IMG/VR virus record: IMGVR_UViG_2740892231_000005 | From: a virus | Taxonomy: Duplodnaviria > Heunggongvirae > Uroviricota > Caudoviricetes | Strand: one strand, 5' to 3' | Length of the DNA: 49,646 nt | Shown here: positions 22,150-49,505 of the stretch, one piece after another | Layout: every line of letters begins with the position of its first letter | Position numbering within the stretch: the stretch's first letter is position 1 | The notes under the pieces: model-generated | What the model was told of the DNA's origin: nothing | Databases searched by the model: none | Seen by the model: only the letters and a program-made list of their open reading frames with translations | Made by a program: the position numbers and the translations under genes

Positions 22150-22730
22150 CCATTAGCAAGATACTGAACAAATCCCTCATGCGTTTCATGCGCGTCGTGG
22201 TACTGACGATAAACATCCAGCAACAATGCAATTTCCATATCCGTCGCGGGAATACGTTCTTTATCAATAGCCAGGTACTTAATTTGAACAACAGGGGAAG
22301 AATTATCGTCTTCTTCCTGCGGCTGTTCATCGCTTAACATTTCGTCAAGCTCTGCATCATTAAACCCAAGCAGATCAATATCAAAATCATCATCCATTAA
22401 CTCTTTGACTTCTTCGGCCAGAAGCTGCATATCCCAGCCAGCATTTAAGGCCAGCTTGTTATCTGCAATCCTGTAAGCCTTCTTCTGTTTTTCAGAAAGG
22501 TTACTCAACCGAATCGCCGGAACTTTATCCATTTCCAGAATTTCGGCTGCTGCAAGCCGACCATGCCCCGCAATCAGTTCATTCTTTTCATCGATCAGCA
22601 CAGGATTAGTGAAACCGAACTCACGGATACTGTTCACCAACTGTTCAACCTGCTCATCTGAATGAGTCCGTGAATTTTTGGCGTATCTGAGCAGCTTACC
22701 GACTGGTAAATATTCGATTTTTAGAGCCAT
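22140..22730 (-). CDS. ParB-like nuclease-domain protein (ParB/Srx fold)
   Basis: 196 aa; ParB N-domain motifs (LIAGHGRLAAA, KKAYRIADNKLALNAGW); paralogue of 25397..26020. Confidence 0.75.
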   Translation of the reverse strand: MALKIEYLPVGKLLRYAKNSRTHSDEQVEQLVNSIREFGFTNPVLIDEKNELIAGHGRLAAAEILEMDKVPAIRLSNLSEKQKKAYRIADNKLALNAGWDMQLLAEEVKELMDDDFDIDLLGFNDAELDEMLSDEQPQEEDDNSSPVVQIKYLAIDKERIPATDMEIALLLDVYRQYHDAHETHEGFVQYLANGCK

Positions 22731-23287
22731 TTTTTAACCGCCATAACACAACAGGTTAAAGAAAACTGTTTAACTTATTGATACTAAAAGAGAAAAATGA
22801 CGATCTTTTTACTCATAAAAAATCACACAAACCAGCATAATCATCTGATTTTATTAAGTTTTTATAAGTAAAAAGGATCTTGAGATGGTGTTTTGGTTAA
22901 AAGATTGGATGTATTTGCATGATTTATAACGATTTTTATCAGAACAACATCACATTGGTTAAAGATCTGCGCGTATCTTGATGATCTAAAAGAAAATTTT
23001 CTACTTTCTTTTTACCAGCACAAATACAGCAAAAAATCACGTTTTCCCGATATTTTTCAATGAGATGAGTAAATTTCTTTTACCGCAACTTTTAACCTAA
23101 CTTTTTTCACGTTTAGCTAGCCGAACATCGGGGTTCGAATGACCCGCATCCAACGCTTTTGGCCAGAAGGACCCAATTCTGCCGGACGATGAAACGATGC
23201 TCGTGCTCCCCCACAGACAGCCAGCGAGCGACGCTACAGAACACAGTGAATACACTCTGCATAACAACACCATCAACCACACGATGA

Positions 23288-24007
23288 TTAACGAGAGAAG
23301 GTCTTAGAAAGAATGTCATCAATAGCCTTTGTGACTTCATCAGCAAACGCATCCTCACCAGCACGCAGCGCCACGCCATGCCAATCAAGACGCTGCGAAT
23401 AGTTAGGTTGCTGGATAAACGTAAGGATCAACGTAGGACGCCGCCCAACGCGCTGCCAGACGCCTGGTTGAAGCGGGTTACTTGTACCAGGTCGAACAAC
23501 AAAAAACTCCGTAGGCTTGCCCTGACGGCGATTTTGATGCGCATCTCGCTGAACTCTTAGGCCAGATAAGACCTGCTGTAATTGCCCCCGCGAAATATTC
23601 CCGTATTTATCCAGCTTTGCGCCGGGACCAGGAGCAAGCTGCCAGCCGTTAGGCAAATATCCACCAGCCCTTAGCGCCCCTTCTGAGCGTTTGTACTGTC
23701 GTTGGCCACCTTCGATTTGCGGAGTCAACGTTACAGGGGCTGGCGTTCCTCCCCATTCACGAGCATACACAATGGCTGTAGGATCACTCTTCTTTGCGGC
23801 CAAAACGTAAGTAGAGTTCTGAATCCACGGCGTGGGCCTGTCAAATACCCGATTAATTTCATTCTTAATCGCAGCCTGAGAAGCCTTTGCCGTTCTGGTT
23901 GCCGCAAGCGCCATTGCGAACGGCAATTCGCGTTCTTCAAGGCGCTGGAGTTGTCGTTGAATATCCTGAGAAGAAAAATCCATCTTTATCTCAATTCTGT
24001 CAGCCAC
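23288..24007 (-). CDS. Hypothetical protein
   Basis: 239-aa ORF embedded in the ParB-like cluster; no recognisable domain. Confidence 0.45.
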   Translation of the reverse strand: MADRIEIKMDFSSQDIQRQLQRLEERELPFAMALAATRTAKASQAAIKNEINRVFDRPTPWIQNSTYVLAAKKSDPTAIVYAREWGGTPAPVTLTPQIEGGQRQYKRSEGALRAGGYLPNGWQLAPGPGAKLDKYGNISRGQLQQVLSGLRVQRDAHQNRRQGKPTEFFVVRPGTSNPLQPGVWQRVGRRPTLILTFIQQPNYSQRLDWHGVALRAGEDAFADEVTKAIDDILSKTFSR

Positions 24008-24023
24008 CAGCGCCTCCTACACA

Positions 24024-25403
24024 CTACTTAATCAACGGCCGGAAAGCCGCCAGCACATCATCAGATCGTCCGATTGTTGAACCACCAGGCAACGGCAACT
24101 CAAACTCAAAACGAACAGCTTTCTCCAGACTCGCCCAACTAAGGGAATCATCGTTAATGACGTGCAAATACCAGCTCTTACAGTTGAATATTGACCGCTT
24201 AATCCTGAAACCATGTACACGACACAACTGCTTCACTTCATCATCAGAATGAAACTTCTGGTAAAACCAGTGCCCCTTCCGGTACAACGCGGTAAAACCG
24301 TTATGATCAATAAAATAAAGCCGGCTTTTGGAACTCGCCGCTTGTGTTTGCTTCAGGACTGTTTCCAGCTCTCCACGGCTACGGCCAGAAAAGAATATTG
24401 ACCCACCAGCTTTACACAGGCCTTTCAGAACCGTCAGAACGGACCATTCAGCCTCGACACTATCGACCGAGTTCAAAACGCTATCGCAAATCACGTAGTC
24501 GTAACGCCCTCGCGTTTTTAAGTCGTCCACCAGCGTATCAATCATTCGGTTTGTTGCAGCCCTATCCAGAGTGTTTCCAGCGCCCTTACGGCGGAAAAGC
24601 TCGAGATCATGCAGGTTATATCCCTTTGCCCTGAGCATTCGCGCGTAGTCTCCCTGCCCCGAACCAAAATCAATTCCTCTTGGCGTCTTGGCAATAATCG
24701 GGAGGATCAACGACTCATACAGATTTGATTTCAGGCTGCCACCATTACGCAACCGCATAAGCTGCGCATACGTCTGGATGTATGTTGTTTTCTCCAGATG
24801 AGAATACTCAAATACACCATAAGTTTTATTCAGATAACTTTGGTATTTTTCCTTCTCAACATCAGGGATCACAAACACCGTTAGCGGTGTGCGCGTCATT
24901 TTCGCTGCTAATGCATACTGAGCACAGTGAATAACCTCACCAGACTGAGTAGCAACACAACCACCCCACGGACCATACTTGATAACCAGTTCCGCTATGT
25001 TCTTTCGAACATATGCCATTTTCGCGCGCATATTGCCTGAGATCTGGCTTGCCGATACCTGAACAAAACCATGCTTATCTTCCAGACCGGACACCCTGCA
25101 ACGCTCATCTCCGCTATCAAAATCCGTTCCGTTATGCAGTTGGTTAAACCGTACTTCGTCGTATACCGTCGTTTCACAGGGCAACACATACACCGCAGCA
25201 CGCGTTATTCCCAATTTACGTAGCGCCTTCGTCCTTTGGTGTCCCGCCACCAGCAAATCGCCGCGCACTATCAATGGCTTCACAAGCCCCAGCTCCCTGA
25301 CGCTTTCCGCCAGCCTCGCAAGATCATCCTCACCGATAAAACGCGGGTTATATTCCGCGCCGCGTAGGTGCGTTATGTCGTAATTGAGGTGAAGCATCAG
25401 CAC
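24024..25403 (-). CDS. ParB-like N-terminal domain fused to a class I SAM-dependent methyltransferase domain
   Basis: 459 aa; N-terminus LVAGHQRTKALRKLG (ParB-like); C-terminal half with GIDFGSGQGDYARML (motif I) and DYVICDSVLNSV; no DPPY/NPPY motif seen. Confidence 0.7.
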   Translation of the reverse strand: MLMLHLNYDITHLRGAEYNPRFIGEDDLARLAESVRELGLVKPLIVRGDLLVAGHQRTKALRKLGITRAAVYVLPCETTVYDEVRFNQLHNGTDFDSGDERCRVSGLEDKHGFVQVSASQISGNMRAKMAYVRKNIAELVIKYGPWGGCVATQSGEVIHCAQYALAAKMTRTPLTVFVIPDVEKEKYQSYLNKTYGVFEYSHLEKTTYIQTYAQLMRLRNGGSLKSNLYESLILPIIAKTPRGIDFGSGQGDYARMLRAKGYNLHDLELFRRKGAGNTLDRAATNRMIDTLVDDLKTRGRYDYVICDSVLNSVDSVEAEWSVLTVLKGLCKAGGSIFFSGRSRGELETVLKQTQAASSKSRLYFIDHNGFTALYRKGHWFYQKFHSDDEVKQLCRVHGFRIKRSIFNCKSWYLHVINDDSLSWASLEKAVRFEFELPLPGGSTIGRSDDVLAAFRPLIK

Positions 25404-26020
25404 ACCTCCCCAGCCAGCAATGCGGATACAAATCCGATATAGCTGCCATTATCATCAACATAACGAGACACCGCGCAGTCAAAACGATCCGCTTCCTCAT
25501 CCGTTGCCGGGATTTTATGACCTCCAAATGACAGGTACTGAACTTTTACGCCTGATTTGGCCTCATCCTTCTCAAATGGGATATCCATACCTTCTGTGTC
25601 ATCGTAGACCGCCACACTCAATAAGTTATCCAGTTCGCGCTGAGTAAAACCAATTGAGTCCAGAGCAAAATCATCGGCCGCAAGATCTGCAAGCTCCGCG
25701 CTTAACAACTCTTCATCCCAACCAGCATTCAGCGGAATACGGTTGTCGGCCAGACGATATGCCTTCTTCTGATTCTCCGTTAGCCCAGCCAGAACAATGC
25801 AGGGAACATCATCCATCCCCAACTGAGTGGCCGCAGCAATTCGACCATGACCAGCAATTACAACGTTGTTCTCGTCTATCAGGATCGGATTAGTCCATCC
25901 GTACTCCTGTATGCTGGCAACAATCTGATCTACCTGCTCCACGGAGTGTGTGCGAGCGTTCTTTTCATAACCAATCAACACAGAAAGTGGTAAAGAAACC
26001 ACATTAAGTTGTTTTGTCAT
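25397..26020 (-). CDS. ParB-like nuclease-domain protein, paralogue 2
   Basis: 207 aa; VIAGHGRIAAA, KKAYRLADNRIPLNAGW; about 50 percent identical by eye to the 22140..22730 product. Confidence 0.75.
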   Translation of the reverse strand: MTKQLNVVSLPLSVLIGYEKNARTHSVEQVDQIVASIQEYGWTNPILIDENNVVIAGHGRIAAATQLGMDDVPCIVLAGLTENQKKAYRLADNRIPLNAGWDEELLSAELADLAADDFALDSIGFTQRELDNLLSVAVYDDTEGMDIPFEKDEAKSGVKVQYLSFGGHKIPATDEEADRFDCAVSRYVDDNGSYIGFVSALLAGEVC

Positions 26021-29349: not shown

Positions 29350-29425
29350 GAGAGTGAATTGGTGGCCCCTACCGGATTTGAACCGATGACCGTGCGATTA
29401 TGAGTCGCCTGCTCTAACCACTGAG
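29350..29425 (-). tRNA. tRNA with CAU anticodon (Ile2/ileX-like, or Met)
   Basis: 76 nt; cloverleaf folds by hand (acceptor GGCCCCT/AGGGGCC, D-stem GCTC/GAGC, T-stem ATCGG/CCGGT, CCA end); one mismatch at the top of the anticodon stem. Confidence 0.8.
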
Positions 29426-29604
29426 CTAAGGGGCCATATTTGATCTGTTTGTCTGGTGTGGCGCCGCGCACGAAAATCCCAGCCAATAAATTCAGGATTT
29501 TTGGGCGCGGCGGCATATCAGACAAACATGGTTGATGCATGCGCTAATGAGAAAAGCGCATAGAATGTTGTAACTATATATTTATATAATTATAGAAATA
29601 TATA

Positions 29605-36655: not shown

Positions 36656-36888
36656 CAGCGCCCCTTACCATTGATAAAGAGGTTGAACTCGTTGATTAAC
36701 TGGACATACATGCTTCTGGCCGCGTAGTTCTTTGCCAGCTCTTTACGGGATGAGATCCCGCAAAACTCACGCAGAATCACAGAGGCCTCAGAACTGTTTG
36801 AAACGTTCTTCCCTGTTTTACTGGTCAGAAAGCGCCAGAATTGGGGATTCTGGCAATGCATCGCAGCACCGCGAACATAACCACTCAT
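36655..36888 (-). CDS. Hypothetical protein
   Basis: 77-aa ORF. Confidence 0.35.
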   Translation of the reverse strand: MSGYVRGAAMHCQNPQFWRFLTSKTGKNVSNSSEASVILREFCGISSRKELAKNYAARSMYVQLINEFNLFINGKGR

Positions 36889-37400
36889 TGATGGCCCCCG
36901 TCATTTCTGGTGCTTTTCACCGTGCGGCTGCTTAAAAACCTGCCATCACGAGAAACAGACACATCTCGTTTACCCAACCTCATTTCACGGCGGTAACATT
37001 CAGAAAATGCCTCGTCCGGCAGCATATAAATGCGACGCTTCGCCTCCGTATCCAGAAGAGAACGGCTTGGGGTTACATATAAAAACGACTCATCAATAGG
37101 GACAAAACCACGAGCAAGAATTGCTGGAAGAATGCCTGGAAGAACGCAGAAAACAGCTCCACGATGCAGCAACATCTGGTACTCCATGACCTCCGTTATC
37201 CCCGTGACGACTGTTACGGTGTCACGTCTGTTACGGCTGGCAACCAGCCGCTGCACACGTCCAATTTTCTGCTCTACAGATAGACGTTTACTATCGTTAT
37301 CAATATGATCGATAACAAATCCTTTAATCGTTTGATCAAGGTAGTGCACCACCTGCGATTGAATCTGGTGATTATCACCAAAGAAGGCCAGAATCATCAT
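36885..37400 (-). CDS. Hypothetical protein (nin-region-like)
   Basis: 171-aa ORF. Confidence 0.4.
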   Translation of the reverse strand: MMILAFFGDNHQIQSQVVHYLDQTIKGFVIDHIDNDSKRLSVEQKIGRVQRLVASRNRRDTVTVVTGITEVMEYQMLLHRGAVFCVLPGILPAILARGFVPIDESFLYVTPSRSLLDTEAKRRIYMLPDEAFSECYRREMRLGKRDVSVSRDGRFLSSRTVKSTRNDGGHQ

Positions 37401-37891
37401 TCCTCAAGCCTCCCAAGTGCTGAACGCCGGGCGTTGCTAATCTCCTTATGAATCAGCTCGATATCGCTGGAATCTTTATTCTTAAACTCCAGCACGGCAA
37501 TCGCATCACGAACCTCTGAAACGGTTACGTGTGAGTGTTTCCAGCGAGCAATGAATCGCGGACCGCGTAGATTGCAACGCTCCGCAGGCATCCCCAGCTC
37601 AGAGAAAACCGCTTTCAGCCTTGATAAGCAGTTAACAGGGAGATTCCCTTTGATCTTGTTCTGCCGAACCGATGTGCCATCGCTACGCTGGCGCTGACGT
37701 TCGGCAAAATCTGCCGCCCATTGCTGGACGTTAATCCGGCCTTCTGAATACGCCACCAGCAGCGTCAGGTTATCCGCACGAGGGAATCTCTCGAAGCGAT
37801 ACCAGGCACCAATCAGTGATGACGTAAAGCCAAACTTTCTGGCAACACCAATTTGGCCTCCATTTTCGTCAACCCACTCCTGAAAGGTCAT
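37397..37891 (-). CDS. Cro/YdaS-like HTH protein, divergent from the repressor gene
   Basis: 164 aa; N-terminal DENGGQIGVARKFGFTSSLIGAWY resembles Cro/YdaS-type HTH; start abuts the operator cluster. Confidence 0.5.
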   Translation of the reverse strand: MTFQEWVDENGGQIGVARKFGFTSSLIGAWYRFERFPRADNLTLLVAYSEGRINVQQWAADFAERQRQRSDGTSVRQNKIKGNLPVNCLSRLKAVFSELGMPAERCNLRGPRFIARWKHSHVTVSEVRDAIAVLEFKNKDSSDIELIHKEISNARRSALGRLEE

Positions 37892-37909: not shown

Positions 37910-38027
37910 ACCACGATATGTGGTATTAAACCCACATATCGTGAGTTTTTCAATGGGCGAAACAAAAAATAACCTTCTATTTGTGGTCCACCTCTCGTCT
38001 TACCATGTGAAAACCACTAAATGTGGT
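37910..38027. promoter_or_regulatory. Immunity operator cluster: palindromes ACCAC-N5-GTGGT at 37910..37924 and 38013..38027, partial sites at 37933..37943 and 37983..37991
   Basis: Seen in sequence between the divergent cro-like and cI-like starts. Confidence 0.65.
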
Positions 38028-38064: not shown

Positions 38065-38721
38065 ATGAAAAGCAACGACGAGAACATCAAGAAAGAAATA
38101 GGTCTGCGCATTCAGACTCTACGGAAACAATCCGGCATGACTGCCGGAGATCTCCAGCAAGTCACTGGAATAGGCTTAAGCACCTTGCAGAACTATGAGG
38201 CCGGATTAAGACAACCATCTATACCTGCCATCAAGAAAATCGCGCACGCCCTGAAAGCATCAGCGCCTTATATCGCGTGCTTAACAGATAACCCGTTCCC
38301 ACCCCAGAATACTAACGCTCCTGTTATTCCTGGGCTTGTAGCTATAAAAAATGACATAGCATCGCACGCCGGAGAAAAGCCAGTGCTGGCGATAGAACAG
38401 GAGATTCTACGAAGCAAGAACATCAACCCATCGTCTCTGTCAGTTCTCCAGAGCAACGATGAGTTAATGTCACCAACAATATCCCCTGGCTCCCAAGTCC
38501 TGATTAATACAGACGATACAGAGATTCATGAGGGGATCTATGCCCTTGAAGACAGAAATGGCCTGGTTGTTTTGAGGCACTGTAGAGTCATACCGGGTGA
38601 CAATGCTGTTATGCTGTCAACCGAAAGGGATGCTGAAATGAACACTAAGCATCTGAATAATGAGGAATTTAAGCGTTATAAAGTTCTTGGCCGCGTAGTT
38701 AGTGTTGTCAACTGGTTATGA
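38065..38721 (+). CDS. cI: CI-like repressor (N-terminal XRE HTH, C-terminal S24/LexA-like domain)
   Basis: 218 aa; HTH (LRKQSGMTAGDLQQVTGIGLSTLQNYEAG); C-terminal domain with S24-like features. Confidence 0.8.
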   Translation: MKSNDENIKKEIGLRIQTLRKQSGMTAGDLQQVTGIGLSTLQNYEAGLRQPSIPAIKKIAHALKASAPYIACLTDNPFPPQNTNAPVIPGLVAIKNDIASHAGEKPVLAIEQEILRSKNINPSSLSVLQSNDELMSPTISPGSQVLINTDDTEIHEGIYALEDRNGLVVLRHCRVIPGDNAVMLSTERDAEMNTKHLNNEEFKRYKVLGRVVSVVNWL

Positions 38722-38813
38722 TACACAGCACGGCGGAAGCCGTGCATTTCTACGCTCAAAAAAACCACATTTTGTGGTTTTGACAACATGTAAAAGTATA
38801 AAAGAGGCTACGC

Positions 38814-39188
38814 ATGGAATTACATACAGCCAATAAAAACGAAACTCTGATCACTGCTGGAATCGAAATCCAAGCGTTGAACATAGCGATTGAGTGTATG
38901 TTATGCCAAATCATTGATAATGAGAAAGATATCGACTGGATAGAATCTATCCTTCATCTGGCATCAGAACAAAAAATCTGCCTCAAAACGGCCTTACAAT
39001 ACGATGTGCCAGCGGTATCGAAGCTGTGCCAACCATTGATGGCATATAACAGAGCTATTATTTCTGTATGCCTCATGATTCTCGATGAAAACACCCCTCT
39101 TAGCGACCGCTCAGAAGCTGCTCTAACCCTCTCACGTAAACAGCGACAGCTAGCAAATCAACTGATATCAACGATAGCTGACCTCTGA
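38814..39188 (+). CDS. Hypothetical protein co-oriented with and downstream of the repressor gene
   Basis: 124-aa ORF; AT-rich by eye; followed by a hairpin. Confidence 0.5.
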   Translation: MELHTANKNETLITAGIEIQALNIAIECMLCQIIDNEKDIDWIESILHLASEQKICLKTALQYDVPAVSKLCQPLMAYNRAIISVCLMILDENTPLSDRSEAALTLSRKQRQLANQLISTIADL

Positions 39189-39192
39189 CTGC

Positions 39193-39212
39193 AAGCGGGC
39201 TAACGCCCGCTT
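39193..39212 (+). terminator. Hairpin (aagcgggc-taac-gcccgctt) closing the repressor operon
   Basis: 8-bp GC stem; weak U-tract. Confidence 0.45.
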
Positions 39213-39320
39213 ATATGATTATAGATTTATATAATTATATAAAACGCTTTTCATCCGCCAAAAAGTTGGTTATGCTTACCTCGTTCTATAAATATAGATT
39301 TATAGAATTATATAATCAAA
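39213..39320. repeat. AT-rich iteron cluster (tatgattatagatttatataattatataa ... tataaatatagatttatagaattatataat) upstream of parA; candidate centromere or operator
   Basis: Contains exact TATAATTATA (39230..39239) and the repeated unit ATAGATTTATA. Confidence 0.55.
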
Positions 39321-39338
39321 CACATGGAGTCTCGACAA

Positions 39339-39992
39339 ATGACTATCTCTGTAGGTATTTTCAACGGAAAAGGCGGCGTAACCAAATCAACAATTGCCCG
39401 TGCTTTAGCAGTTGCTTATGCAAAGGCTGGCTGGAATGTATGCCTGATCGATATGGATGTGCTTAACGGAACGGTAACGCGTTGGGTACAACGCAGAATG
39501 GCCAACAATATCGAACCAGCAATCGCGGCGCAGCCGTGCGGCACACCATCACAAGTCCAGAAAATCATCGAATCAGAAGTATACGACTTGGTTATCGTCG
39601 ATGGCGGTGCCTACGCATCTGAATCAGTACCGAAGCTCTCTGAATTTCTGGATATGGTTATTTTGCCAACCAGATTCTCTACCGATGACCTGGAAACCAC
39701 CGTTAACACAGCTCACGGCATCGTTAAAAAGGGTGTACCAATCAAGAAAATTTGCATGGTGTTTTCCGGCGCGGCTGAAAACGAAGCTGACTATATTGAA
39801 GCCCAAGAGTACCTGGCTAATACGCCATACTTTGTTGTCGATAAGTACATTCCCCACAAGCCAGCTCTGAGCAAAGCTCAGGATAAGGGCTTAAGCCTCA
39901 TTGAGTGCTCATACGTTGCGCCACGCAAAAAGGCAGACGACGTTATTCAGGGGATTATCAACCAGCTTGAGGCTCTGACTACTGCCGCGTAA
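39339..39992 (+). CDS. parA: ParA-family partition ATPase
   Basis: Deviant Walker A GKGGVTKST; start chosen at the second ATG with GGAG RBS (ORF track gives 39324). Confidence 0.8.
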   Translation: MTISVGIFNGKGGVTKSTIARALAVAYAKAGWNVCLIDMDVLNGTVTRWVQRRMANNIEPAIAAQPCGTPSQVQKIIESEVYDLVIVDGGAYASESVPKLSEFLDMVILPTRFSTDDLETTVNTAHGIVKKGVPIKKICMVFSGAAENEADYIEAQEYLANTPYFVVDKYIPHKPALSKAQDKGLSLIECSYVAPRKKADDVIQGIINQLEALTTAA

Positions 39993-40020
39993 TATATAAT
40001 TATAGTTTTATAGATTTATA
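39985..40020. repeat. Second iteron block (aatatataattatagttttatagatttatataa) between parA and the RHH gene
   Basis: Exact TATAATTATA at 39995..40004. Confidence 0.5.
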
Positions 40021-40035
40021 TAAGAGGGGATGCAC

Positions 40036-40284
40036 ATGGCCGCACCATCAAAACCACCAAAGAAGAACAGCAAAGGCGTACCGCCATCGATCGAACAACC
40101 GCAGGTTTTCGACCCGACTGAAACGCCAACCAGAACCAAATCAGGTGGGGCACAAATGGCGTTTAACGTCGACCCTGAATTTAAACGCGAGTACAAAACG
40201 TTCGCCAGCTCAATGGATATGTCATTGAAAGAAGTGCTGACAAAATCTTTTGAGTTACTCAAGGCTCAATACAACCAGAAGTAA
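40036..40284 (+). CDS. ParG-like ribbon-helix-helix centromere-binding protein (type Ib partition)
   Basis: About 82 aa; disordered basic N-tail then RHH-like C-terminus (MAFNVDPEFKREYKTFASSMDMSLKEVLTKSFELL); directly after parA. Confidence 0.55.
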   Translation: MAAPSKPPKKNSKGVPPSIEQPQVFDPTETPTRTKSGGAQMAFNVDPEFKREYKTFASSMDMSLKEVLTKSFELLKAQYNQK

Positions 40285-40506: not shown

Positions 40507-40528
40507 AAAAAAGGCCCCCGAAGGGGCC
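40507..40528 (-). terminator. Intrinsic terminator hairpin (ggccccc-gaa-ggggcc) with U-run on the minus strand; possibly bidirectional
   Basis: A6 run on the plus strand 40507..40512 immediately 5' of the stem. Confidence 0.55.
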
Positions 40529-40537
40529 TAATCGCTA

Positions 40538-40660
40538 CTTGCTGCTAATGTTTATCGTCACATTCAGAGCGTTATCAGTAATCTTCCAACCCTCCCCATG
40601 TGGCGTAAACAAAGCTCCAGTAACAACGATAAAAATACACATACAGTATTTTTTCATTGT
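40538..40660 (-). CDS. Small ORF (40 aa, MKKYCMCIFIVVTGALFTPHGEGWKITDNALNVTINISSK) with signal-peptide-like N-terminus
   Basis: Hand-translated; AAGGG RBS 6 nt upstream; terminator directly downstream. Confidence 0.3.
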
Positions 40661-41054
40661 ATGGCCCTTACAGGCCGTTTCACGGCATCCCCACCGACGA
40701 AAACAACGCGAGAGCAAGCACGGCTGCTTGTGCTTGCATGTACGGCAACGGAGAATCCTCCCCTAAAGTCGGTGCCCGGGTGCGAATCGGCGGGAAGGTC
40801 CACAGGTATTTTACGATTATTTTAAGATTAGTAATAGGAAAGAAATTAAACGAAAAAACTCGTTTATTTTCACAAAATCAGTAACCTACCCACAATCTGT
40901 GAGTTTGCAGGCACAACAAGAACCACAATTTTTTGAAGCATAATAGTGGACTATTATTACCTTTTGGGTAAAATTAACTTGCTGCTTGTGCTTGCGTGGT
41001 TGTTTATACAACAACGTAATGCTGAAAGGACCGCGAATCCGATCAGCACGAAAG

Positions 41055-41082
41055 AACCGTCCTCAAAAGGACGGTTTTTTTG
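41055..41082 (+). terminator. Intrinsic terminator (aaccgtcct-caaa-aggacggtt followed by T7)
   Basis: Seen in sequence; overlaps the stop codon of the convergent 41063..41635 gene. Confidence 0.6.
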
Positions 41083-41635
41083 TTTCTCCCCCTTCCTTCC
41101 CAAATGATTCAAATGTTAATGAGAGAGAATCATTTGATATGTTCGATTTAGCGCCGTTATCGACCCAATTTCTGTATGCTTCATCACAACAGTACCTTAC
41201 GGCAGTTGGAATAACAGGAGAGCCGCCCAGAAATGAAAATCCCATTGAGCTTATGCTAATTCTTTCGAATGGCCTATTTCTCAATGCTTCAAATCCCTTG
41301 CTGTTGAAGTAACTCAGCATCAGAGGTAAAAGGTTATCCTCGTCTTGACTGATTGTTCCCGGGAAAAAGTAGTAACCATGGCGATTAAATTCGGGAATCA
41401 GTTTTTCTACCAACAACATGAAATTCATTGGGGTAATATTAAGGGCAGAGCAAGCACCAAAAAGAGCATCAACCGTTAATACAGACTGTCCGTTCTCTAT
41501 CTTTGTCCATGCGTTTGGTGTTTTTCCAGCAGCTTGAGCCAGCACTCCTTGATGCACACCTCTTTCTAGCCTAAGTTCTTTTATGATCATTAGGTGGATT
41601 GTTGAAAAACATGAGTTTTTTGACGTTTCAGTCAT
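41063..41635 (-). CDS. XRE-family HTH regulator with about 130-aa C-terminal domain of unknown function
   Basis: Start at MTETSKN; HTH (LRLERGVHQGVLAQAAGKTPNAWTKIENGQ). Confidence 0.55.
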   Translation of the reverse strand: MTETSKNSCFSTIHLMIIKELRLERGVHQGVLAQAAGKTPNAWTKIENGQSVLTVDALFGACSALNITPMNFMLLVEKLIPEFNRHGYYFFPGTISQDEDNLLPLMLSYFNSKGFEALRNRPFERISISSMGFSFLGGSPVIPTAVRYCCDEAYRNWVDNGAKSNISNDSLSLTFESFGKEGGETKKPSF

Positions 41636-41772
41636 TTTTTTATCCCCATATTGAATTTTTTCCTTGTTCCCAACTTTAACAAAACACCACAACTCAGGAT
41701 TGAGTCATTCCCTACAGGAACTATACATTCCCGTCTTTGGTATATCAAGAAAATTAAAAGCTCGGCATTCAA

Positions 41773-41789
41773 ACCCACACTATGTGGTT
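41773..41789. promoter_or_regulatory. Additional CI-type operator (cccac-actat-gtggt) in the divergent region between the XRE gene and the antirepressor operon
   Basis: Same ACCAC-N5-GTGGT palindrome as in the immunity region. Confidence 0.55.
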
Positions 41790-42081
41790 TAGTCTGTTAA
41801 AATCCGCCGTATTGACATGAATGCGTCATTGGTGGACACTTTCCGAGCCGTAGCAAAATCTACGGTCGGGATTGGCGTCCCGATTGCACAATGGCGCATA
41901 CCGCGTTAGCGGTTTTTTTATGCGTAAAGCACTGCTACACCCAAATTATGGTGGGGCGTGCGGGGGCGGAGAAATCCGCGCCGGGTTTGTCATTGTGCCG
42001 GTTACGCCAACCCTGTACGTCTCACCACCATATTGATTGGCGTCATTGGTGGTGATAGTTCCTTTAATCGGAGATATCACA

Positions 42082-42273
42082 ATGACAAACCTACCCCATG
42101 ACTATTACGTCAACCTCGTAAAGATCCTTCTCAAGAAAGCCTCATACGCCGATAAATTCCGCCTGGCTGAAATCATCGAGCGCGAAGCTATGCGCATCGC
42201 CAGCAACGATAACGCTGTTTCTGACGCAAAAATCTCCCTCGTAACCAAAGTTGTTATGGGAGGTGCAAAATGA
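42082..42273 (+). CDS. Small protein upstream of, and translationally coupled to, the antirepressor gene (icd-like position)
   Basis: 63 aa from MTNLPHDYY with GGAGA RBS; its stop overlaps the ant start (ATGA). Confidence 0.45.
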   Translation: MTNLPHDYYVNLVKILLKKASYADKFRLAEIIEREAMRIASNDNAVSDAKISLVTKVVMGGAK

Positions 42274-43421
42274 AAACGCTTCCGACCGTTAACACCCTAC
42301 AGCCTATCCTGCATAATCAGATTCCAGTAATCACAACTGAGCTACTCGCCCGCCTTTATGGAACAGAAGCAATCCGTATACAGCAAAATCACCATGAAAA
42401 TAAAACTCGGTTCATTGAGGGGAAGCACTTCTTTAAAGCTGTTGGTGATGAACTCAAAAATTTGCGACTAGTTTTAAACGAGTCACAAAATGAGGTGCAA
42501 ATTTCCCCCAAAACTCGCTCTCTCATCCTCTGGACAGAACGCGGGGCTGCACGTCACGCCAAAATGCTTGAAACTAACCAAGCGTGGGATGTGTTCGAAC
42601 GGCTGGAAGACTGCTATTTCAACCAGAACGCGCAAACGGCCGCGACCGTAACCGTCTCGCCAAACAATGCTCGTGAGGTTGTCGATACGCTCAACGCCAA
42701 ACCGATGTTTTACATTAAGGTGTGCAACAACGAGCCACTCACAACCTCAGCCGATGTTGCCCAGGCATTCAGCACCACAAACAATTCCATCGTTATGGCC
42801 ATCGATGCGTTACGCATTCCTCGCACAGCTGCGGCACGTCATTTCTTTAAAGAGCAACGACCGCTGGAAGGAAGCGACCGCGAAATAACAATCTATCGCA
42901 TGACAAAAGACGGATTTACCTTGCTCATGGAAAGTATCGACGGTCCAGGCGTGAAAGATATCAAGCTGGCCTACATTGAAGCCTTTAACGCTATCAGCAG
43001 CGTGTTAAAAACACAGTACGAGCGTGATCTGGCTAAACGACTGTACCAGGAAAAAACGATTATCCGCGCGGCAACAGAGCATAATCGGCTATTAACGGAA
43101 CCGAACTACAGGAAGGAACTAATCAAGGAGTTTGACAAGGCAACAGGGAAAACCAAAGCGGCGCTAAATCTGCCAGCAATGACTCAGGAAAATGTGATAT
43201 CAGCCTTACTTCTTGATCTGCTCAGAAACGCCAGAGCACTTATCAGCTTTGACGAAAACCTGAATCCTCAGCTCAAGCTACTACCACCGACAGGCAAAGT
43301 AGTCGACCAAGCTGATCACAACAGCATACTCAGCGTTCTGGATGCAAACCTGCCAGCCAGGACACTACAGGATCTGATAAAAACATGTGCTGATAAGCTG
43401 GCACAGAAAAGCAGACCATAA
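42270..43421 (+). CDS. Antirepressor-like protein (ORF6N/Rha-type N-terminal domains)
   Basis: 383 aa; two N-terminal segments resembling ORF6N/Rha-type antirepressor domains (PVITTELLARLYGTEAIRIQQNHHENKTRFIEGKHFF). Confidence 0.7.
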   Translation: MKTLPTVNTLQPILHNQIPVITTELLARLYGTEAIRIQQNHHENKTRFIEGKHFFKAVGDELKNLRLVLNESQNEVQISPKTRSLILWTERGAARHAKMLETNQAWDVFERLEDCYFNQNAQTAATVTVSPNNAREVVDTLNAKPMFYIKVCNNEPLTTSADVAQAFSTTNNSIVMAIDALRIPRTAAARHFFKEQRPLEGSDREITIYRMTKDGFTLLMESIDGPGVKDIKLAYIEAFNAISSVLKTQYERDLAKRLYQEKTIIRAATEHNRLLTEPNYRKELIKEFDKATGKTKAALNLPAMTQENVISALLLDLLRNARALISFDENLNPQLKLLPPTGKVVDQADHNSILSVLDANLPARTLQDLIKTCADKLAQKSRP

Positions 43422-45677: not shown

Positions 45678-45977
45678 TCAGATGTTAAACGCTATTCGTT
45701 TTCCTGTGGGAAGCTCAACATCCAGGCTTAATTTGCCTCCCATAGCTTCAACGTAACGCTTTAATGTCGCCAGCTTTAAATCATTTCCGCGCTGCTCCAG
45801 CTTTGTTACTGCTGGCTGGCTTATACCCATCGCCTCAGCAACCTGTTTTTGTGATAACTGGAGTTCTTCACGCATCATCTGCAAGCCGACCTCAAGAATC
45901 ATCTCATCTGCCATTTCTTTAATTCGCGCCTGGCTTTCCGGTGAACGGCTGGCAATCGCCTCATCTAATGTTCTCAT
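45678..45977 (-). CDS. HigA-like antitoxin (XRE HTH)
   Basis: 99 aa; HTH (LSQKQVAEAMGISQPAVTKLEQ); immediately downstream of, and overlapping, the toxin gene. Confidence 0.75.
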   Translation of the reverse strand: MRTLDEAIASRSPESQARIKEMADEMILEVGLQMMREELQLSQKQVAEAMGISQPAVTKLEQRGNDLKLATLKRYVEAMGGKLSLDVELPTGKRIAFNI

Positions 45978-46330
45978 TACTTGCTCTCCAGTGTGTTCAG
46001 ATGTGCTGCAAACTCATCCTCAGCTATACGCACCAGTTTTTCATAAAACCGCTTATCGTTACTTTTGTCTCCTGCACAAAGAACGATGGCCCGGCGAATC
46101 GGATCGAACGCATAAAAGGCTCTTATCGGACGGCCAGAAAACTGAACGCGAAGCTCTTTCATATTTTTGTACCGAGAACCTTTTACGGTATCGGCATATG
46201 GCCTGGGTAACTCAGGTCCGTAAACCTGTAGCTTTTTCAAATCAGCCAAAACCTTTTCCTGAAGAGCGTCTTCTTGCTCATTTAGCCAGTCGTCAAATCG
46301 CTGGCTAAAAAGTACCGTCCACATGCTCAA
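45977..46330 (-). CDS. RelE/ParE-superfamily toxin, HigB-like (toxin-first operon)
   Basis: 117 aa; size, basic character and toxin-antitoxin gene order typical of HigB/HigA modules. Confidence 0.7.
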   Translation of the reverse strand: MSMWTVLFSQRFDDWLNEQEDALQEKVLADLKKLQVYGPELPRPYADTVKGSRYKNMKELRVQFSGRPIRAFYAFDPIRRAIVLCAGDKSNDKRFYEKLVRIAEDEFAAHLNTLESK

Positions 46331-47786: not shown

Positions 47787-48779
47787 TTAATGTTGGAGTG
47801 ATTTCCAGGTCTTTCTTAGCCTGTTATAACGCTGCTCAACGAGGGAGCGTAAATATGCAAGGTCAGCACCAGGATACATGCCATCAGCAAATTCCTGGCT
47901 AACCTCTCTAGTGATTTGATGGCGAAGTTCGGCCTCTCCCTTTTCCTGAACAAGACGCGCAGCTCTCTCCGCTGCTTTCTGTTTTGCCTTTATCTCTCTG
48001 GCCGTCTTCCTCTGACGCCATACATTCTCCATCTGCTCCTGAATAACAATACGCTTATAATCAGCCTCCGTTATCGCTTTTTTAAGCCGTTCGCTATTCT
48101 TCGCATTGAAGTAATTAAGTTTCTGGCTAACCGCACGTCTCCATGCTTGTTCAGTAATACCAACTGTTTCCAGCAGTTGATCACGAATCTCGATTTTCGC
48201 TGGCCAATACTGTTTATTCACCCGATCCCAGCGACGTTCATAATCAATAAAACCTAACTCTTTCAGTTGCGACAACGCCCTTGTACAGCGCGTTATAGAC
48301 TTGTTCCCAGCTTCGGATACGGTAGACAGGCCGCAAAAATCAGCCAACGCCTCAGCACTGGCCAGAACCCGCTTAGAAATGATGTTTACATGGTGCAAAA
48401 TCGCAGCAATCACAGCATTAATCGCCCGACGACGATGCTCGTTTATCCGGCGTTTCCGCTCTGACGGTTGATTAACGTAGAACGCAACCTCACACGTAAG
48501 ATCACGACCATTAATGCGCTGTAAAGCATCAGATAACACCAGCGGCAGCTTGTGCGTATGGTGCTTTGGAGGCTGGAACTCCGGCGACAAATTACAAACG
48601 TAAGCTGAACGTAGAGACGGCATTGGTCTATCCATATGTTCGCTCTTGCGTCCACGGAAAACCAACGTATAATGGGAGTTGTCGAGGCGCCCATGGTTAG
48701 TTGTTGGTTTTCCTTTCCGTGGATGTCGCAAGAAGCCCGCAGATTTATCTGCGGGCTTTTTGTTTCCATATCTGGTCAC
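47787..48779 (-). CDS. repA: Plasmid replication initiator, IncFII RepA1-like
   Basis: 330 aa; SITRCTRALSQLKELGFIDYERRWD resembles the recalled RepA1 segment SITRATRALTFLSELGLITYQTEYD. Confidence 0.75.
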   Translation of the reverse strand: MTRYGNKKPADKSAGFLRHPRKGKPTTNHGRLDNSHYTLVFRGRKSEHMDRPMPSLRSAYVCNLSPEFQPPKHHTHKLPLVLSDALQRINGRDLTCEVAFYVNQPSERKRRINEHRRRAINAVIAAILHHVNIISKRVLASAEALADFCGLSTVSEAGNKSITRCTRALSQLKELGFIDYERRWDRVNKQYWPAKIEIRDQLLETVGITEQAWRRAVSQKLNYFNAKNSERLKKAITEADYKRIVIQEQMENVWRQRKTAREIKAKQKAAERAARLVQEKGEAELRHQITREVSQEFADGMYPGADLAYLRSLVEQRYNRLRKTWKSLQH

Positions 48780-48950
48780 TTTTCAACCAGACACCCACAA
48801 TCATAACCACGTTACGTGGTTTTAAGAGAACTCTACCACAACACTTTCGGTCATGCACGAAGTCTCTCACTGATCGAACGATAATCCACCAGTAAAAGGA
48901 TCTAAATTGGATCTCGTTTTGCGAGCATCATACTACTGGCCTAACTCCAG

Positions 48951-49505
48951 TCAATGATTCCCAGCCGGAAACCTGCGGTAAAGCGTGGATAAGGTAACAT
49001 CGAAGATAATCGCTATCCGCTTACGTGAAACACCATTCGCAATAAGCCTTCCGATCTGTTCCCATTGCTCTGGTGCCAATTTTGAGCGGCGTCCTCCTAT
49101 CCTGCCGTTAGCCCTTGCCACCGCCAATCCTGCACGCGTTCTTTCAATCATATTTTCCCGCTCCATCTCTGCGACTGCACTCAGCATCGTGTAGGCAAAG
49201 CGGCCAATTGAAGTGCTAATTTTTATCCCTTCCGTAATCGAAATAAACTCAATGTTGTTTGATAAAAAATAGTTTAGTAAATCAACAAGATGAATCAGAG
49301 AACGCCCCATTCGGTCCAGCTTCCAGACAATAACCGTATCGCCCGGCCGTAACACCTTCAGTAGCTTATCAAGTCCTGGTCGTTTTGATTTAGCACCGGA
49401 TATTTTATCTTCAAAAATCCGGTCACATCCTGAACTCCTGAGCGCCTCCAATTGTAATTCCAAATTCTGGTCAAAAGTTGACACCCTCGCATAACCATAT
49501 TGCAT
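48951..49505 (-). CDS. Serine DNA invertase, Gin/Cin/Pin/Hin family
   Basis: 184 aa; N-terminal YARVSTFDQ with catalytic Ser; alignable by eye with Gin along the full length. Confidence 0.95.
   Translation of the reverse strand: MQYGYARVSTFDQNLELQLEALRSSGCDRIFEDKISGAKSKRPGLDKLLKVLRPGDTVIVWKLDRMGRSLIHLVDLLNYFLSNNIEFISITEGIKISTSIGRFAYTMLSAVAEMERENMIERTRAGLAVARANGRIGGRRSKLAPEQWEQIGRLIANGVSRKRIAIIFDVTLSTLYRRFPAGNH

Follow-up and report, generated by a model that had tools for sequence, protein, structure and literature searches.

orf124, a small core gene behind the repressor of an IncFII-type phage-plasmid lineage, and its predicted operator shared with cI/cro and repA

In phage lambda, rexA and rexB are carried on the PRM transcript together with cI, and a terminator is found only after rexB. 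Expression of the Coi protein of phage P1 is controlled by the operators of the P1 repressor itself. In the phage-plasmid N15, the repressor CB binds OR1-3 and, in addition, two OL sites that overlap the repA promoter downstream of cB (PMC4488713). In this study, we analyzed a DNA stretch of 49,646 nucleotides (IMG/VR record IMGVR_UViG_2740892231_000005; the whole stretch is referred to as the window), which is a phage-plasmid of approximately 49 kb from an active family, and focused on orf124, a small gene located directly behind the cI-like repressor gene. A preliminary description of the window had suggested that orf124 is co-transcribed with the repressor and might, like rex or sieB, serve in superinfection exclusion or abortive infection. 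We found instead that a conserved terminator-like hairpin and a predicted operator of the repressor lie between the two genes, and that the operator motif recurs in the cI/cro control region and in the leader of repA.

The gene orf124 and the lineage that carries it

The orf124 gene (38814..39188, plus strand) starts with ATG and encodes 124 amino acids (aa); its position 3′ of the cI-like gene and on the same strand is exactly as previously described. A Shine–Dalgarno sequence (AGAGG, 38803..38807, plus strand) lies 6 nt 5′ of the ATG. The sequence GAGAGGC is unchanged in seven closer relatives (alignment A2), and more distant relatives have Shine–Dalgarno sequences of the GAGG/AGAGG type at the same spacing. 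The ratio of nonsynonymous to synonymous substitution rates (dN/dS) is 0.26–0.27 for close pairs, which indicates purifying selection, and is the highest locally, compared with 0.12–0.14 for the cI C-terminal domain and 0.013–0.019 for ParA. The conserved Shine–Dalgarno sequence, the existence of diverged homologues and the dN/dS values therefore identify orf124 as a real gene under selection. Its characterization as AT-rich holds only marginally, with a GC content of 42.1% versus 44.4% for the window and 46–48% for cI and parA. The hairpin said to close the gene is present (39193..39212, plus strand) as a GC-rich structure with an 8-bp stem just before the centromere-like repeats of the partition locus (folding free energy, dG, −14.9 kcal/mol; z −3.7 versus shuffles), although it has no canonical U-tract and was not called by the terminator scan. 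A GCGGGC/GCCCGC hairpin is likewise found 3′ of the orf124 homologues in two relatives (L014 and L016).

Over 2.5 kb around orf124, the window is 99% identical to Yersinia phages vB_YpM_39, vB_YpM_41, and vB_YpM_44, which are 49-kb circular records. The gene was also identified in 61 PLSDB plasmid records from Escherichia, Salmonella, and Klebsiella, all non-mobilizable and nearly all 44–52 kb in size, and the reference strain E. coli ATCC 25922 is among the carriers of the orf124 phage-plasmid, with cI at 22,659–23,321 and orf124 at 22,192–22,566 of CP009073.1. Homologues of cI and of ParA with at least 60% identity were each found in 61 PLSDB records. The family is widespread and unstudied, comprising about 60 complete E. 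coli, Salmonella, and Klebsiella plasmids as well as plaque-forming Yersinia phages, and our literature and accession searches found no paper on it. Homologues of orf124 range from 97% down to about 19–29% identity. When 1.84 billion representative proteins were searched exhaustively with a profile, only seven orf124 clusters were recovered, all from this lineage; the family therefore appears to be confined to these phage-plasmids.

The gene order, with the cro-side operon transcribed leftward and cI, orf124, parA, and the parG-like gene rightward, is shared by the window and every locus that is long enough, and the shorter loci keep at least cI followed by orf124 (loci surveyed: L002–L014, L016, L017, and L019). 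Homologues in the same slot occur in Citrobacter, Yokenella, Salmonella, and Serratia and in metagenome contigs; they extend down to the distant Serratia plasmid p2, whose cI is 33% identical. Vibrio plasmids with a distant cI have a different architecture and were set aside. Amino-acid identity to the window among the relatives is 27–60% for orf124, 28–65% for cI, 47–76% for the Cro-position protein, 61–91% for Ref and DUF1064, and 89–96% for ParA and ParG. The fastest local divergence is seen in orf124 and the C-terminal domain of cI, and the helix-turn-helix (HTH) domain of cI is conserved. Among the relatives found, orf124 showed no presence/absence or replacement polymorphism, and judging from this distribution we regard it as a core gene of the lineage rather than a variable moron.

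Shortened versions of orf124 (60–78 aa) occur in several public assemblies (P0008, P0009, P0011, and P0017; plasmid CP042622.1). In P0009, the allele whose sequence was read, the frame shifts at an A-run within the gene (window positions 38969–38977). Such alleles may represent real loss of function or homopolymer sequencing errors.

These patterns bear on the alternative that orf124 is a lysogen-expressed accessory gene, reached by read-through from the repressor promoter, whose product excludes or aborts superinfecting phages as Rex, SieB, and Nun do. The fastest local evolution would be expected in an arms race, a lineage-restricted family with no known homologues is common for exclusion genes, and the possible frameshift alleles (P0008, P0009, P0011, and P0017) suggest that the gene is dispensable for maintenance. 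However, the frameshifts lie in an A-run and are perhaps sequencing errors. Every relative also has orf124, and none has another gene in its place, whereas the genuinely accessory loci of these elements do vary (NinX, toxin–antitoxin pairs, a DGQHR protein, and the region 3′ of parG). Overall, exclusion is the main alternative, yet we consider it rather unlikely; if orf124 were an exclusion gene, it would encode a new, very small soluble defence protein.

The repressor and the interval between cI and orf124

The cI-like prophage repressor gene (38065..38721, plus strand) encodes 218 aa with an N-terminal HTH_3 domain (E-value 4.5e-11) and an S24-like C-terminal part. The protein matches PHROG 4, annotated as "transcriptional repressor" (E-value 1e-26), and its Peptidase_S24 match is below threshold (18.4 bits versus a cut-off of 23.3). 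The gene diverges from the leftward early operon. The divergent cI/cro control region (37910..38027) contains O1 (37910–24), a degenerate O2 (37931–45), a half-site near 37983, and O3 (38013–27), the last of which is 37 nt from the cI start. The leftward promoter PR (TTGAAA-17-TTTAAT) is the best sigma-70 match, with O2 inside its spacer and O1 at +1.

A gap of 92 nt separates cI from orf124, and in all 11 diverged relatives examined it contains a GC hairpin followed by a T-tract. In the window, this hairpin (38728..38751, plus strand; GCACGGC-GGAA-GCCGTGC followed by ATTTCT) has a dG of −15 kcal/mol and a z of −3.3. It is kept in all ten aligned relatives, with 95.7% of cells paired, and its stem has undergone one compensatory A:U to G:C change, a covariation that is not significant alone. 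The T-run comprises six or seven residues in the relatives and is reduced to ATTTCT in the lineage of the window. From these features, the hairpin reads as an intrinsic terminator for cI that is probably strong in the relatives and leakier in the lineage of the window.

An operator-type palindrome (AACCAC-ATTTT-GTGGTT, 38763..38779) follows the hairpin and ends 35 nt before the orf124 start. The motif ACCAC-N5-GTGGT is present in the window in four exact and five one-mismatch copies, compared with 0.7 expected by chance with at most one mismatch. The exact copies are at 37910 and 38013 in the cI/cro region, at 38764 in the cI–orf124 gap, and at 48806 in the leader of repA. The longer 17-mer AACCAC-N5-GTGGTT is perfect only twice in the window, at the orf124 site and at the repA site (48805..48821), the latter in the leader upstream of an IncFII-type RepA gene (47787..48779, minus strand; NCBIfam NF040977, E-value 8e-69). 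In the Salmonella plasmid pAR-0407-1 (L020), in which orf124 is 60% identical, the motif is likewise found in the cI/cro region, in the cI–orf124 gap, and upstream of repA, where the palindrome is at the orthologous place (L020 14712).

All relatives have the site at the orthologous position. Among them, and even between E. coli plasmids, the 5-nt spacer of the palindrome changes and the arms are invariant. In the most distant relatives (L012 and L016), two tandem AACCAC half-sites are present, and their right arms no longer pair. The persistence of half-sites where pairing is lost argues for a protein-binding site and not an RNA hairpin. A role of the palindrome as an RNA hairpin or terminator was also rejected on the grounds that the stem is weak (dG −9.3, z −2.1) and that the motif recurs at promoters. 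At the recognizable promoters, namely the leftward PR and those of cI and of the repA leader, the operator is located in the spacer or at +1, a placement whose geometry is repressive. We therefore predict that 38763–38779 is an operator of the repressor, shared with cI/cro and repA, and infer that cI binds it.

Given the perfect repressor-type palindrome in the repA leader, the prophage repressor may have assumed a CopB-like role at the repA promoter, and possibly a CopA/CopT-like antisense element is present too. Next to the palindrome in this leader come a stem-loop and then a terminator-like hairpin (48757–48730).

Simple co-transcription of orf124 with the repressor, as previously proposed, is not supported, since the conserved hairpin with its T-tract and then the operator copy separate the two genes. 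In a position weight matrix scan of 11 orthologous gaps, no conserved sigma-70 promoter was detected (best scores 2.7–7.5; shuffled median 5.7). Weak sigma-70 candidates exist in the gaps of some relatives only, and their positions are not conserved. A perfect TTGACA at 38780–85 was rejected as a promoter because it is lineage-specific and has no proper −10 partner. As no sigma-70 promoter stands out, the orf124 transcript could come either from cI read-through limited by the terminator and bound repressor or from a weak or factor-dependent promoter. Under either source, repressor binding would be expected to lower orf124 expression. The weak T-tract in this E. coli lineage (ATTTCT) and the lack of a recognizable independent promoter make read-through the simplest source, which, like the location of orf124 directly 3′ of cI on the same strand, would suit an exclusion gene expressed in lysogens. 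Against that alternative, the relatives have a strong T6–7 terminator as well as an operator between cI and orf124. In an RNA-seq study of ATCC 25922, parA was up 3.2-fold with gentamicin; orf124 and cI are absent from its supplementary list, which covers differentially expressed genes only.

The palindrome might act in another way, since a pure looping role, or even activation, is possible. Distal operators are known to form loops in lambda (OL–OR) and in phage 186 (flanking sites). One alternative is that 38763–38779 serves solely as an auxiliary operator, whose looping to those of cI/cro approximately 750–850 bp away would tighten repression; its place before orf124 would be incidental, with orf124 expressed at a constitutively low level and having an unrelated function. 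A single, high-affinity-looking site 3′ of the repressor gene is consistent with looping, as are the lack of a detectable partner promoter and the conserved distance between the sites, which follows from the conserved length of cI. However, the other perfect copy is in the repA leader, where direct regulation is the obvious reading; the distance of the palindrome from the orf124 start is fixed at approximately 35 nt, near the 37-nt distance from O3 to the start of cI; and the most distant relatives have two tandem sites at this place, as in N15 OL. Looping with an unrelated orf124 function thus appears quite improbable.

Several further observations concern the repressor and the early operon. 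At the place of the GMSM active-site motif of LexA, the repressor reads DELM, and it may for this reason be non-cleavable and dependent on the Ant antirepressor for induction; a BLASTP comparison of cI with LexA, aimed at the catalytic Ser/Lys, gave no usable alignment. The gene in the Cro position (37397–37891, minus strand) encodes a 164-aa protein of PHROG 7452 that has no Pfam domain and only a weak N-terminal repressor-like match. An adjoining gene (36885–37400, minus strand; 171 aa, PHROG 7047) ranks second locally in rate of evolution. Pairwise distances for this gene correlate with those for orf124 (partial r 0.75), but with only eight taxa the correlation is not interpretable.

The orf124 product and its possible role

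The AlphaFold2 model of the orf124 protein is an up-down four-helix bundle (helices 2–36, 40–61, 66–91, and 96–123) with a predicted local distance difference test score (pLDDT) of 91.7 and a predicted template modelling score (pTM) of 0.85. The family is acidic throughout, with an isoelectric point of 4.5–5.0 and a net charge of −6 to −12. A hydropathy scan revealed no convincing transmembrane segment in the family: the maximal 19-residue Kyte–Doolittle score is 1.0–1.8 across its members and 1.51 for the window protein, and the usual cut-off for a membrane segment is about 1.6. PHROGs assigns orf124 to family 7632 only, which is annotated as function unknown. Profiles of Pfam, NCBIfam, PADLOC, and PDB sequences yielded no significant or consistent match; weak matches were each confined to a single member (NucC, E-value 0.036; PDC-S57, E-value 0.008; Phage_RpbA, E-value 0.031). 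The protein matches neither Rex nor SieB nor any PADLOC defence model, and no nucleic-acid-binding or enzymatic features were found in it.

The topology of orf124 matches that of generic up-down four-helix bundles, such as designed bundles, cytochrome b562, the talin rod, CheA P1/HPt, and chemoreceptor sensor domains. These matches have 4–15% identity to orf124 and no shared functional residues, and designed proteins rank on top, so the likeness carries no functional information. The remote homology and structure prediction proposed in the preliminary description have thus been run; neither the sequence nor the fold yielded an informative homologue, and no defence family was matched. The modelled fold would support no more than a soluble protein-binding module. 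The lack of a convincing membrane segment, an enzymatic motif, and a consistent PADLOC, Pfam, or NCBIfam match is a further point against an exclusion function. Of the rex/sieB-like position suggested before, what stands is a small same-strand gene behind the repressor in the immunity region; a passive lysogen-expressed moron of the rex/sieB type is disfavoured by the terminator–operator gate, by a distribution that is strictly that of a core gene, and by a fold that is acidic and soluble.

We tentatively favour the explanation that orf124 is a repressor-gated cistron encoding a protein-binding modulator of the lysogeny or plasmid-establishment switch. In this mechanism, transcripts from cI would meet the conserved intrinsic terminator before orf124, and repressor, probably also Cro, bound to the palindrome would block read-through or a weak local promoter. 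Expression of orf124 would be kept low in an established lysogen and would rise as repressor occupancy falls, for example upon infection of a naive cell, induction by the Ant antirepressor, or a dip in copy number; orf124 and RepA would then rise in parallel. Given that the product is an acidic, soluble four-helix bundle and shows neither enzymatic nor nucleic-acid-binding features, it would most likely act by binding another protein, the identity of which we can only infer. Its preferred role would be to modulate the lysis/lysogeny or plasmid-establishment decision, in the manner of P1 Coi and the small antirepressors of repressor regions. More concretely, orf124 could antagonize the repressor in the way of Coi, and Ant would be the evident induction route.

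A more specific proposal, which we consider unlikely in this full form, is that orf124 represents a new family of factors for commitment or establishment that are gated by the repressor in phage-plasmids of the IncFII type. Freed together with RepA when occupancy drops, such a factor would bind a component of the switch, whether the non-cleavable cI, Ant, or a protein of replication or partition, and couple copy number or entry to the lysis–lysogeny decision.

Phage-plasmids must operate a phage switch and a plasmid replicon from a single genome, and here one operator sequence appears to link orf124 with the lytic and repressor promoters and with the leader of the IncFII-type repA. If orf124 is indeed a repressor-gated modulator, it would offer a handle on how these elements sense repressor dose or copy number.

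Other features of the window and comparison with known systems

Downstream of orf124 is a partition locus with a ParA gene (39324/39339..39992; 217–222 aa) and a gene for a ParG-like small protein (40030/40036..40284; 82–84 aa). Clusters of AT-rich repeats with an 8-bp period, TTATAGAT and TTATATAA, flank parA at 39211–39323 and 39992–40031, and look like the split centromere/operator of a type Ib partition system composed of ParA and a ribbon-helix-helix protein. The location of orf124 directly upstream of the centromere-like repeats and parA, an adjacency kept in all relatives, might indicate that it is an accessory of this locus, such as an adaptor or regulator of ParA or of the ParG-like protein. 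However, type Ib partition systems require only ParA, a small ribbon-helix-helix protein, and repeats, all of which are already present. The divergence is also unmatched, with ParA and ParG 89–96% identical where orf124 is 49–60% identical, and hairpins bound orf124 and set it apart as its own unit. In the ATCC 25922 data, the 3.2-fold change of parA is not accompanied by an entry for orf124 among the differentially expressed genes listed. A partition function of orf124 is accordingly highly improbable.

In the variable region after the partition genes, a full-length match to the ryfA RNA was identified (40507–40803, minus strand; Rfam RF00126, 142 bits). A secondary immunity module of the P1/N15 type (41774–43421) contains isrK (41847–41919), a C4 antisense RNA (41944–42032), a small open reading frame, and the gene of the Ant antirepressor (42270–43421; 383 aa, ORF6N and pRha). 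One operator-like site with one mismatch (41774–41788) lies between this isrK/C4/Ant module and a divergent 209-aa HTH gene (41063–41692, minus strand). Two further one-mismatch sites (25977–26012), 21 bp apart, are within the first approximately 17 codons of a ParB/Srx-like gene (25397–26020, minus strand), and one of them has a conserved counterpart at the orthologous position of the Salmonella relative (L020 36201); these sites could reflect late-region control or simply coding constraint. The window also contains myovirus-type tail, lysis, and terminase genes, a HigB-like toxin with an HTH antitoxin (45678–46330, minus strand), a Cin/Gin-type DNA invertase gene adjoining tail-fibre genes (48951–49505, minus strand), and a tRNA gene (29363–29435, minus strand).

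Compared with lambda cI-rexA-rexB, and also with sieB and HK022 nun, orf124 is similarly a same-strand gene 3′ of the repressor inside the immunity region. Unlike in lambda rex, a terminator and an operator precede orf124 in the window elements. RexB and SieB are membrane proteins, whereas orf124 is soluble and acidic, and no sequence or profile similarity links it to proteins of the Rex/SieB type. In the lambda layout, the slot of orf124 corresponds to OL/PL and N; being acidic and folded, however, orf124 is not N-like.

Similar to P1 Coi and VP882 Qtip, orf124 is a small, lineage-specific immunity-region protein. The repressor of the window appears to have no standard motif for self-cleavage, and the window also contains an Ant module. 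An interaction between orf124 and the repressor is purely hypothetical, and a mirror-tree test of orf124 against the cI C-terminal domain showed no co-evolution signal.

The immB region of N15 and phiKO2 likewise belongs to phage-plasmids and has operators at the divergent cI/cro promoters, with extra copies 3′ of the repressor gene before the next gene. In both cases the repressor regulon reaches a replication gene, in the window putatively via the separate site in the repA leader. The two differ in that the N15 gene behind OL is repA itself, whereas here it encodes a 124-aa helical protein; the window repA is of the IncFII type, unrelated to N15 RepA, and is approximately 10 kb away with its own site. 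The window element is also circular in public records and has type Ib ParA/ParG instead of SopAB. In view of these comparisons, orf124 is best described as an uncharacterized small immunity-region gene under a predicted repressor operator.
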